Below, piece by piece: positions 75 through 31,296 of a stretch of 64,000 bases of DNA. The stretch covers positions 256,001 to 320,000 of IMG/VR virus record IMGVR_UViG_3300009031_000221. One strand, given 5' to 3'. The DNA is from a virus (lineage: Duplodnaviria; Caudoviricetes). Below the pieces are notes generated by a model. The model did no database searches, had not been told where the DNA came from, and was given only the letters and a program-made list of their open reading frames with translations. The translations under genes and the position numbers were made by a program. How positions within the stretch are numbered: position 1 is the stretch's first letter; each line of letters opens with the position of its first letter.

Positions 75-151
75 TGGCGACCCCTGTCGGACTTGAACCG
101 ACGACCTCTTGCGTGACAGGCAAGCGTTCTAACCAACTGAACTAAGAGGCC
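75..151 (-). tRNA. tRNA-Asp(GTC)
   Basis: Canonical cloverleaf, loop CT-GTC-AC, encoded CCA. Confidence 0.95.
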
Positions 152-159
152 ACAATAAG

Positions 160-303
160 ATCCCTGACTGGATTCGCACCAGCGACCTCCCACGCCATAG
201 TGGGTGCTCCACGGTCTATTCCTTCCATGGGGGCACTTGGTTACCCTTCCGCGGTGGCAACCGAATACATTCCCATTTATTGAATGCCTTGAGCTACAAG
301 GAT
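160..303 (-). ncRNA. tRNA-like RNA with 81-nt structured D-loop and abnormal anticodon loop
   Basis: Acceptor ATCCTTG/CAGGGAT, TA linker, D-stem GCTC/GAGC enclosing 210-290, stem CCCAC-TATGGC-GTGGG, T-arm GCTGG-TGCGAAT-CCAGT. Confidence 0.7.
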
Positions 304-378
304 GGCGGGACTGAAGGGAATCGAACCCTCCTACAGGACATAGACAGTGTCCTTGCGCCTCCAGGCGCATCCAATCCC
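303..378 (-). tRNA. tRNA-Asp(GTC), atypical isodecoder
   Basis: Cloverleaf with CCA, loop CT-GTC-TA (U37), G8, extendable D-stem TGCGCC/GGCGCA, G73. Confidence 0.8.
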
Positions 379-528
379 ATTAACGGACAAAGCTCATCGG
401 CCAATGGCCTTGCTTCTACAGTAGCTTCACCGACTGGTTCCACTTTTCGTCTTGCAAATTTGCAACCTTGCAAGATACCCATCAAGGCACCGTCATGCCT
501 TCTGAGTGACGGCGTCGTGTCGTCACCT

Positions 529-13937: not shown

Positions 13938-15029
13938 CTAGATGCCGTAATCGGCGAAGTTGTCCGACAGGATGCCCTTCATAACCAGATCCGTACGGCA
14001 ACCCAACTGCGGGATGTTGGGATTGAGCTTGTGGCGGGTCTGCTTCTCGGCTTTGCGGGCACCCTTGAGCAGTGCCTCGAGTTGATCGTAGCCCAGCCCC
14101 GCATCCTTGAAAGCGTCACTGAAGACCGCACGACCCAACAAGTCCCGCATATCCTCCTGCGACAGGGTATCCCCGAACAGGACATCCTCGTTGGTCTTGC
14201 AATCCAGGATGATGTTCGAAACATTCTCATCCAGGAACCGGGCCACCCGCTCGATGGTGCCGATCTTGTAGACCTTGCCGGTGTCAGGATCGAGCTTGCC
14301 GTACGTGAACGCAGCGCCTGTCCAGTTCTTGATCTCCGACTCATCGTTGTGGGTGTCACCATTGCCCCACAGGTCCGCCGAAGGGATGGCACCGATGGTT
14401 TCCGCATAGGCAGCCTTGGCGCCCGTGTTGCCATTGTAGCCCTCAAGGGTTTCGCCCAGCTCGAAGCACAACTGGTAGACCTCGGCCTTCGAGAGCATCG
14501 CAATGGGGTTCGAATCCACTTCCCCATCGCCACCCTTCTGGTAGAAACGCAGGAAGCGATCCTCGCACTCGTTGCCCGTACCGTGACGAATGCCGCCACC
14601 CGTAATGCGGTTGTAGCCACGGCCAAGCGGGGCACGCAGGCACGAACGAACGCTACCCAGGATGGTCGGGTCGGCAGCGAGGCGGGCTTCAATCTCCGCC
14701 ATGTCGAATCCCGCCGCCTGCAAGGTGCGCTTGATCTCCGCAAGGATCGTGTTGTAGGACTCCGTGAAGTCGCCAACCGCCAACTTGCAACCCAAGGCAT
14801 TCGCAAGGCGAATCGCCCGGGCGGTCTGGACGGGATTGGAGTTGATGGCGAGGTGCGCCAACGTGACGTTCTCGGCACCCTGTGCAATCACGAGAAGTCC
14901 CGCCAAGGCAGCGGAATCGATGCCGCCGGACAAGTCCAACTCGGCACGCAAGATGCCCGCATCGGCATGCATCTTGCGAATGGCATGAACACGATTTTGC
15001 AATAGGGCTTTGGGATTCAAAACTGGCAT
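13938..15029 (-). CDS. nadE: NH3-dependent NAD+ synthetase
   Basis: LSGGIDSA PP-loop, N/S.R..LR, GTGNECE, FYQKGGDG, PIAMLSKAEVY, PSADLW; no glutaminase domain. Confidence 0.9.
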   Translation of the reverse strand: MPVLNPKALLQNRVHAIRKMHADAGILRAELDLSGGIDSAALAGLLVIAQGAENVTLAHLAINSNPVQTARAIRLANALGCKLAVGDFTESYNTILAEIKRTLQAAGFDMAEIEARLAADPTILGSVRSCLRAPLGRGYNRITGGGIRHGTGNECEDRFLRFYQKGGDGEVDSNPIAMLSKAEVYQLCFELGETLEGYNGNTGAKAAYAETIGAIPSADLWGNGDTHNDESEIKNWTGAAFTYGKLDPDTGKVYKIGTIERVARFLDENVSNIILDCKTNEDVLFGDTLSQEDMRDLLGRAVFSDAFKDAGLGYDQLEALLKGARKAEKQTRHKLNPNIPQLGCRTDLVMKGILSDNFADYGI

Positions 15030-30138: not shown

Positions 30139-31296
30139 ATGAAAGTCTTGATTACCGCCGGCCCCGTCTATGGGAGGCTTGACGACAACAAGTTGGTCAG
30201 CAACCGCTCCCGTGGCATATGGGCAGAGAAGTACGCGGAACGCCTATGTGATCAAGGGCACGACGTTACGCTATTGGTTGCGGATACCTACCCTGAGCCC
30301 ATGTGGCACGGAATCCTTCATCGTATCGGGGATCCCGTGCCAAAGGTCCTTCGGCAAACGGGGTTTGATGACTACCGTGCCCAGTGCATGGCGTTGGCGC
30401 CGGAGATGGATGTTGCCATTATGGCAAGCGCTGTCGTCAACTGGATCCCGGCGGAACCCATCAAGGGCAAGATGACCACCAAGGGCTACAAGCCCGGTGA
30501 CCGGGTCAACATTCCGTTCTACTTGGCCCCGCATGTCATTGACGAGATGAAGAAGCTGAATCCCCGTATAACATTGGTCGGTTGCAAGATGACTTCGGGG
30601 GCTGAATACCAAGACATGATTGATGCCGCCTACGATGTCATCCTGCACGCCAAGGCGAATGTTGTCGTAGCCAATGACCTGACGCACGGTCTCAAGGATA
30701 AGTTCCTCGTCTACCAGGACAAGACCGTCGTCCCTTACCGAAAGGACTTCAAGGGTTTATTCCGTGACCTGGATGCCGTATTGGCAGATGAACATTACCA
30801 TACGAAGGTGACTTCACCCGGGTCTTTCACAAAGGTTGAGGGCGGATCCACCTTTGACCGTATCGTGGCCAAGTACTGGGATCGGTTCATCCATCGTTCT
30901 GCTACGGATAACATGGTGCTCGGATCGATTTGTGTTCCACAGGGCGATAATGAAACGTGGCACACATGGCTCCTGTCCCCACGGGAGAAGGGCGGAAAGT
31001 CCTTTATTAGCTATGATGCGTCAATCGTAGTAGACATCGATGGCAGGGAAATCAAAACCGATGGATGCAAGGCAACCTTGAATGCCCCACTTCTCACCCG
31101 TGTTTGCGGCAAATACCCCACGGCAACCGCTATCCTGCATTTGCACGAACAACTGCCGAATGTCCCGACTGTCCCCTATGCCCCACCGGGTACTGTAAGG
31201 GACAATGACCGGGAGATCCCTGGGCCGATATTCAACATCGAAGGGCATGGATTTATTGCATGCTTGGATGATAACCTGGAAATCTGGAGAGTTTGA
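30139..31296 (+). CDS. CoaB-like (phosphopantothenate-cysteine ligase) domain fused to class II aldolase-like C-terminus
   Basis: VLITAGPV...D....SN.SRG, IMASAV..W.P...GK, P.VI..., LVGCK, VVAND; C-terminal AILHLH. Confidence 0.7.
   Translation: MKVLITAGPVYGRLDDNKLVSNRSRGIWAEKYAERLCDQGHDVTLLVADTYPEPMWHGILHRIGDPVPKVLRQTGFDDYRAQCMALAPEMDVAIMASAVVNWIPAEPIKGKMTTKGYKPGDRVNIPFYLAPHVIDEMKKLNPRITLVGCKMTSGAEYQDMIDAAYDVILHAKANVVVANDLTHGLKDKFLVYQDKTVVPYRKDFKGLFRDLDAVLADEHYHTKVTSPGSFTKVEGGSTFDRIVAKYWDRFIHRSATDNMVLGSICVPQGDNETWHTWLLSPREKGGKSFISYDASIVVDIDGREIKTDGCKATLNAPLLTRVCGKYPTATAILHLHEQLPNVPTVPYAPPGTVRDNDREIPGPIFNIEGHGFIACLDDNLEIWRV

Follow-up and report, generated by a model that had tools for sequence, protein, structure and literature searches.

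Phage tRNA-like non-coding RNAs and tRNA pseudogenes are already known kinds of element. The tRNA operon of phage T4, for instance, gives rise to "species 1 and 2" (rnaC, rnaD), stable RNAs of about 120-140 nt that are not tRNAs and have no known function; they are an analogy only to the gene described below. Y RNAs of the YrlA type (RF02553) are non-decoding tRNA mimics on which RNase P, CCA-adding and modification enzymes can act, and their genes lie within about 4 kb of that for Ro60, on the same strand (PMC4201824). A GNCGAAN0-1G motif is located near their 5' end, in the stem formed by the two ends of the RNA (Chen et al. 2014, PMC4201824), and Yrn1 of D. radiodurans has been modelled with an "anticodon" loop of 6 nt (PMC4201824). 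Finally, Crenarchaeota and a red alga, Cyanidioschyzon merolae, have been described to possess tRNA introns located in the D-loop (PMC3241643, PMC3728597).

The element analysed here lies in a window of 64,000 nucleotides (G000:C1:256001-320000) of a 536,053-bp IMG/VR phage record, G000, which CheckV rates as complete; coordinates preceded by G000 are those of the whole record, and the others are those of the window. The phage was detected in four public groundwater DNA runs, which are perhaps its source, and, with a small share, in one lake run; the search returned no RNA run holding it. Huge phages have tRNA genes by the dozen, and in this record ARAGORN called 68 tRNA-type genes, one of them a UUA suppressor and another with a 4-base anticodon, as well as a tmRNA. 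The latter is of the bacterial type, so the host is presumably a bacterium. The tRNA set is redundant; for instance, Asn(GUU) and Phe(GAA) have three genes each, and Lys has five. No tRNA-Cys was found among the 68 calls, the other 19 amino acids being all covered, and the relative G001 carries two tRNA-Cys(GCA) genes. In addition, two genes for RtcB RNA ligases were found, at G000:234779-236017 (-) and G000:463333-464388 (-), with 301 and 211 bits, respectively. The first adjoins a tRNA cluster, and the second lies about 3 kb from a His-like, non-decoding tRNA look-alike whose anticodon loop is oversized (G000 ~467.46-467.57 kb).

The window begins with 3.4 kb of a long array of tRNA genes on the minus strand. 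Within it, a tRNA-like gene of 145 nt, including its discriminator C159, occupies positions 159-303 (-); it is called X hereafter. Its tRNA body with a long hairpin in the D-loop makes it an unusual variant of the known kinds, and our literature search found no paper on such an arrangement.

Anatomy, fold and chance occurrence

All 21 pairs of the X cloverleaf form, with only two G-U pairs among them, one of which belongs to the acceptor stem of 7 bp. The D-stem has 4 bp, and the anticodon and T-stems have 5 bp each, the former with its strands at 204-200 and 193-189 around a loop at 199-194, and the latter at 183-179 and 171-167 (Table 1). U8 and A9 link the acceptor to the D-stem, A26 precedes the anticodon stem, and the variable loop is AGGUC; U8, A14, A26, G53, U54, C56, A58 and C61 are all kept. 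Three anomalies were detected, all of them confined to loops. Instead of a D-loop of around 7-11 nt with free G18 and G19, X has the long insert, whose outer stem takes up the GG at 288-287. The anticodon loop departs from the 7-nt form with U33 and a purine at 37, being 6 nt long, or 8 nt should the closing C-G pair open. Finally, G55 was found in only 5 of the 464 tRNAs parsed in the related phage group. Because of the 6- or 8-nt anticodon loop, the G55 and the burial of the D-loop GG in a stem, X is not, judging from its sequence, a working decoder.

Table 1. Features of X and of the two genes that flank it (window positions).
Feature	Position	Strand	Basis
X, whole tRNA-like gene	159..303	-	sequence, fold, chance control
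X acceptor stem, 5' strand AUCCUUG	297..303	-	sequence + fold
X acceptor stem, 3' strand CAGGGAU, then discriminator C159 + UUA, no CCA	160..166	-	
X D-stem, 5' strand GCUC	291..294	-	sequence + fold
X D-stem, 3' strand GAGC	206..209	-	sequence + fold
X D-loop insert, 81 nt	210..290	-	
X insert apical loop ACCGCGGAAG, palindrome CCGCGG	246..255	-	fold; read from sequence
X anticodon arm CCCAC/GUGGG, 6-nt loop UAUGGC	189..204	-	sequence + fold
X T-arm GCUGG-UGCGAAU-CCAGU, G at position 55	167..183	-	sequence
Upstream neighbour, second non-canonical tRNA, encoded CCA	304..379	-	sequence + fold
Downstream neighbour, canonical tRNA-Asp(GUC)	75..151	-	ARAGORN/Rfam scans

Most of this anatomy had been outlined in an earlier note made from the letters of the window. 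The acceptor, D and anticodon stems and the T-arm that it described as canonical do pair on the minus strand, with UGCGAAU as T-loop, and both the abnormal anticodon loop and C73, which corresponds to C159, are read directly from the sequence. Its 81-nt structured D-loop is borne out by sequence and fold alike. In addition, the first base of X, A303, is indeed shared with the upstream tRNA-like gene, being also the A of its CCA. At the other end, 7 nt separate C159 from the tRNA-Asp gene, and no promoter-like or terminator-like site was found near X, which is tightly packed on the tRNA strand between two tRNA genes. That X encodes no CCA is not unusual for this phage, in which only 20 of 63 tRNAs do so.

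These features bear on two readings of X that we consider almost equally likely. According to the first one, which we tentatively favour, X would be a non-decoding, lineage-specific RNA built on a tRNA scaffold. According to the second one, which is nearly as probable, X would be a decaying paralogue of a tRNA, passively transcribed and functionless, that suffered an insertion in its D-loop, lost a base of its anticodon loop and had its U55 mutated. Three independent defects at near-universal positions (D-loop, 7-nt anticodon loop and psi55) are what such decay could leave behind. However, no stem pair is broken, even though helices make up about two thirds of the body, and three random changes falling all in loops would be unlikely (a rough estimate of about 0.04). 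The intact 21 pairs, the restriction of the three anomalies to loops, the compact placement and the ordinary absence of CCA are instead consistent with a tRNA-scaffolded RNA.

The minimum-energy structure of X (RNAfold) includes the acceptor, D and anticodon stems, and the complete cloverleaf, T-arm included, costs only 0.5 kcal/mol more (-52.4 vs. -52.9). In this minimum-energy fold, the insert forms one long, interrupted, rod-like hairpin of about 24 bp, through the successive helices GGCAUUC with GAAU.G.CC, AUGGG with CCCAU, GUAUU with AGUGC, and GGUUGCC with GGUAACC, and with a purine-rich 5x5 internal loop (AAUAA/GGAAG). The insert lies wholly within the D-loop, and 2 nt and 3 nt separate the base of its hairpin from the D-stem. 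The earlier note had drawn two hairpins here, GCATTC/GAATGT and GGTTGCC/GGTAACC; both pairings exist, but a single long hairpin folds better than two separate ones. A well-formed hairpin placed exactly within the loop argues for the scaffolded RNA and against decay. In contrast, the stability of the folds is only marginal, both for the whole element (z = -1.6) and for the insert alone (-25.5 kcal/mol, z = -1.9, with 10 of 200 shuffles equally stable), and these z-scores weigh on the side of the decaying copy.

In order to know how often such an architecture appears by chance, we performed a scan for sequences that combine a T-arm and a 7-bp acceptor with D- and anticodon stems and a long D-loop. 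The scan returned a single match in the real 536-kb genome, which was X, none in the reversed genome, and two in ten shuffled genomes searched on both strands (0.2 per genome). In addition, X fills exactly a gap of the same-strand tRNA array. Given the scan result and this precise location, chance was excluded, and the architecture of X is more than a chance occurrence, a result that adds to the case for a scaffolded RNA.

The standard tRNA models, which had been suggested as a check in the earlier note, do not recognise X: ARAGORN made no call on it with default settings, and Rfam gave no RF00005 match, either at the gathering threshold or with E-values up to 10. When the insert was trimmed in silico, ARAGORN accepted the body as a tRNA at its default threshold in 22 of 63 trims, with AUGG as a 4-base "anticodon". 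This acceptance is compatible with the scaffolded RNA and also with an interrupted tRNA gene. A tmRNA_permuted row of Rfam at 259-330 (16.8 bits, E = 2.1) was dismissed as noise.

The earlier note had in fact proposed a non-canonical intron in the D-loop. Under such a reading, the insert or part of it would be excised and the halves joined by RtcB to yield a tRNA of about 70 nt, and the presence of two RtcB ligases in the phage, one of them beside a tRNA cluster, speaks for it, as does the acceptance of the trimmed body. Nevertheless, no bulge-helix-bulge was found at the insert borders, in agreement with the failure of the earlier note to fit a clean one, and the weak sites of this type elsewhere in X (two) are fewer than the mean in shuffles (3.8). 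Neither is there a tRNA splicing endonuclease gene (PF01974) in the phage genome itself. No Rfam family of group I or group II introns or of small ribozymes matched over 159-303 with E-values up to 10, and a group I intron would not fit into 81 nt. Moreover, the body left after excision would still have a 6- or 8-nt anticodon loop and G55, and so would not be a normal decoder. The introns of Crenarchaeota and C. merolae also interrupt the D-arm region of a recognisable tRNA gene, but they are bounded by bulge-helix-bulge motifs and removed by an endonuclease to give a normal tRNA, whereas X has no such motif at the insert borders, its phage no such endonuclease, and its body is abnormal even without the insert. 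We consequently regard an intron as highly improbable. As a separate matter, ARAGORN in intron mode called a tRNA-Gly(CCC) with poor stems and an intron of 93 nt at 159-340; this call is an artefact, the T-arm that it uses being that of the upstream gene.

Relatives, look-alikes and ancestry

To search for relatives, a covariance model (R1) was built from the single sequence of X. In the phage itself and in its relatives G001 and G003-G005, the model matched only canonical tRNAs of 72-75 nt. Likewise, only canonical tRNAs were found in 35 loci around Ro60-like genes and in 28 whole related phage records, with no recurrence of X in the latter. A script for cloverleaves with an insert in the D-loop found X alone among all the related loci examined. 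DNA patterns, exact and stem-tolerant, were built for the T-arm/acceptor, the odd body loops, the insert loops and the apical hairpin, and gave no match across IMG/VR, JGI metagenomes and GTDB genomes. Stem-tolerant patterns in which either the odd body loops alone or the insert loops alone were fixed also gave none in IMG/VR and JGI metagenomes, and the apical hairpin of the insert was not found in GTDB genomes. By blastn against GenBank phages, only matches of the T-arm to ordinary tRNAs appeared. In the nearest relatives, G001 and G002 (54% identity in a 581-aa marker protein), the order Lys(CUU) ... Asp(GUC) is kept, and two ordinary tRNA-Ile genes are found at the place of X.

X thus appears as an orphan in the collections searched. 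The search for homologues and covariation suggested in the earlier note yielded no insert-bearing homologue in any of them, and therefore neither covariation nor a signal of selection is available for X. The earlier note had also named the lack of expression together with that of covarying homologues as pointing to a decayed tRNA; as far as homologues are concerned, this is what was found, with none at all and hence none covarying. The orphan condition favours the decaying copy and counts against a scaffolded RNA. In contrast, short-word blastn within G000 found no paralogue of the insert and no donor sequence for it, which is a difficulty for decay through insertion. X was found unchanged in DNA contigs of three groundwater samples, which are not independent support, as all of them may be the source of the assembly. 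Over window positions 161-520, no variants were detected, the coverage consisting of the phage's own contigs only, and the foreign contigs that entered this comparison matched just canonical tRNAs.

In the same genome, tRNA look-alikes that bear a hairpin module, or handle, were found at G000 251766-253702, from 2.5 to 4.5 kb from X; there are at least six of them, each 139-150 nt long. Their acceptor and T arms are intact, and the long module is inserted in a loop, mostly in the variable region. In the 41 unique modules collected from 35 related loci, CUC(G), ahead of an inner hairpin, and ACA[AC]G, behind the outer stem, are invariant, and the family recurs in dozens of phages. Our literature search found no paper on these look-alikes. 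Their array contains as well a 213-aa ORF with a PD-(D/E)XK endonuclease domain, at G000 253924-254565 (-), corresponding to L023:13924-14565. Downstream of X by 6.2 kb and on its same strand, a 668-aa ORF (G000 247951-249957 (-), or L023:7951-9957) encodes a putative Ro60-like protein, so considered from a weak C-terminal vWA match and from its homologues, which are 49-59% identical in the best aligned segment and are present in 35 huge-phage loci, each one with flanking handle-bearing look-alikes.

X resembles these look-alikes in being a cloverleaf of similar length class with a hairpin inserted in a loop, located in the minus-strand tRNA region near the Ro60-like ORF. In contrast to their conserved module, mostly in the variable region, its insert is located in the D-loop, has no homologue and lacks both motifs. 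CUC(G) and ACA[AC]G are absent from X in the required arrangement, and "ACA", as read from the sequence, occurs nowhere in it. A sequence-only handle model (R2) matched the handle-bearing neighbours and not X, although it is a weak test, since RNAalifold gave no consensus pairs on the MAFFT alignment and two true neighbours reached only 4-6 bits. Membership of X in the handle family was rejected because the invariant motifs are missing, with the R2 result, sequence-only and weak as it is, pointing in the same direction. Without these motifs or an R2 match, no partner protein can be proposed for X.

Regarding the YrlA Y RNAs, no match of RF02553 to X was obtained with E-values up to 10, and every YrlA row that Rfam reported for the window lies away from X, over a pair of ordinary tRNAs. 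The GNCGAAN0-1G motif is also absent from X. Whereas the ends of YrlA pair into the Ro60-binding stem, those of X form a normal acceptor stem, and its extra helix is in the D-loop; thus, its assignment to YrlA was rejected, the 6-nt "anticodon" loop common to X and Yrn1 being a point of likeness. A broader possibility is that X could be a diverged Ro60-associated mimic, of the YrlA type or of the handle family, with its docking stem moved to the D-loop. The same-strand position 6.2 kb upstream of the vWA-containing ORF, the length class common to X and its six handle-bearing neighbours and the similar shape of the insert (outer stem, internal loop and inner hairpin) agree with this origin. Against it stand the missing handle motifs, an R2 model that matches the neighbours but not X, and the negative results for RF02553 and its motif, so that we see it as improbable.

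The parentage of the tRNA body was also considered. The earlier note had considered a His(AUG)-like reading of the anticodon loop, and one comparison points weakly in this direction: the top R1 match in the 35 Ro60-like loci was a tRNA-His of a related phage (50 bits) that shares with X the D-stem GCUC/GAGC, the variable loop AGGUC and C73, its anticodon loop being UUGUGGC vs. UAUGGC in X. Other data did not agree, as in its own phage the tRNA-His scored just 26 bits, below Arg(ACG) with 40.7 and Pro(CGG) with 41.5, plain alignment of the body ended in a tie among Pro, Arg, Val and His, and position -1 of X is C, not G. Furthermore, C73 is present on other isotypes of this phage and is thus not specific to His, and a Thg1-like enzyme, relevant to a His-like tRNA without G-1, is absent from the phage. 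Therefore, given the low rank of the phage's own His and the tie, no single isotype can be assigned as ancestor, and a His-like ancestry suggested by these comparisons is a weak lead. As for the acceptor/T-arm minihelix, 26 of its 31 nt are identical to those of a tRNA-Arg(GCG) gene located 1.1 kb away. This identity fits a local duplication and hence a decaying copy.

A grafted RNA or a decaying copy

RNase P and 3'-end processing recognise the acceptor/T-arm minihelix. If X is a tRNA-scaffolded RNA, it would probably be co-transcribed with the flanking tRNAs, and, because this minihelix is intact, RNase P and the 3' tRNA-processing enzymes would release it from the transcript as an RNA of tRNA shape, about 145 nt long. 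The elbow contacts G18-psi55 and G19-C56 would be lost on both sides, and the hairpin of the insert would project from the elbow in place of the contact between D- and T-loops. The tRNA body would thereby supply processing and stability, and the hairpin could be the functional cargo, binding a protein or another RNA. The handle-bearing look-alikes would follow the same plan, X carrying a different, unrelated cargo at another graft site.

The genome itself lends some support to such a scaffolded RNA, as the six or more handle-bearing look-alikes, the putative Ro60-like ORF, the two RtcB and the His-like look-alike suggest that non-decoding tRNA-scaffolded RNAs are habitual here. On the other hand, the neighbouring handle family is conserved in dozens of phages, unlike X, which lacks the CUCG and ACA[AC]G motifs and has no R2 match. 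The alternative of a decaying copy is helped by the heavy redundancy of tRNA genes and by the other long spacers present in the array, which imply that non-functional DNA is tolerated there.

X may be a decoy or a tRNA-scaffolded non-coding RNA, as proposed in the earlier note. A more specific version of this, in which X would be functional and newly arisen as a tRNA mimic, with a fully processed tRNA body and its elbow replaced by a rod of about 24 bp ending in a palindromic CCGCGG loop, is unlikely. In such a case, X would be a candidate decoy for host tRNA-targeting defences or tRNA-handling enzymes, or else a second, handle-independent partner RNA of the Ro60/RtcB RNA-repair set, and it would show phages turning spare tRNA copies into new small RNAs through the grafting of hairpins. 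If functional, X would be the first case known to us of a graft at the D-loop/elbow. It would also offer a snapshot of the origin of such RNAs, in which a spare tRNA keeps the parts required for processing and stability and gains a hairpin in a loop.

If X is instead a pseudogene, it would be a useful negative control for the handle-bearing look-alike family. It would also be a caution for annotation, since standard tRNA finders miss it and the intron mode of ARAGORN miscalls a tRNA-Gly. Functional or not, X as a single copy neither opens nor closes a larger question.

Neighbouring elements and other genes

Other genes of the phage were noted along the analysis. A PolyA_pol/CCA-adding-type nucleotidyltransferase domain (62.6 bits) was detected at G000:148264-148713 (-), inside an unusually long frame of 1808 aa. 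The ORFs of the window include, in this order, one that is NAD synthase-like, at 13938-15029 (-), and one with a DFP domain (pantothenate-metabolism flavoprotein C-terminal domain), at 30139-31296 (+).

Upstream of X, a 149-nt spacer separates the tRNA-Lys(CUU) gene from the odd tRNA adjacent to X (window 380-528 (-)). It folds into multiple hairpins with -49.1 kcal/mol and a z-score of -1.93, and no match was obtained in it either with Rfam or with the handle model R2.

In the odd tRNA itself, at 304-379 (-), the acceptor has 7 bp, the D-stem 6 bp around a loop of 4 nt, and the anticodon stem 6 bp around the loop CUGUCUA, which presents GUC followed by U37. This tRNA was missed by ARAGORN with default settings and by RF00005, the Sec model gave it 35.9 bits, under its cut-off of 47, and its fold has a z-score of -2.65. 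A tRNA-like element of about 110 nt was observed in the relative G002, at L010:2058-2170 (+), and it is also present in G001. Besides an 8-bp acceptor and a 5-bp T-stem, this element has a D-arm hairpin that is extended and a single arm that is long and irregular, and it received no call from ARAGORN; its 3' end, GGGGGUUCGAAUCCCUCCCUUCAGUCCA, resembles that of the odd tRNA at 304-379.
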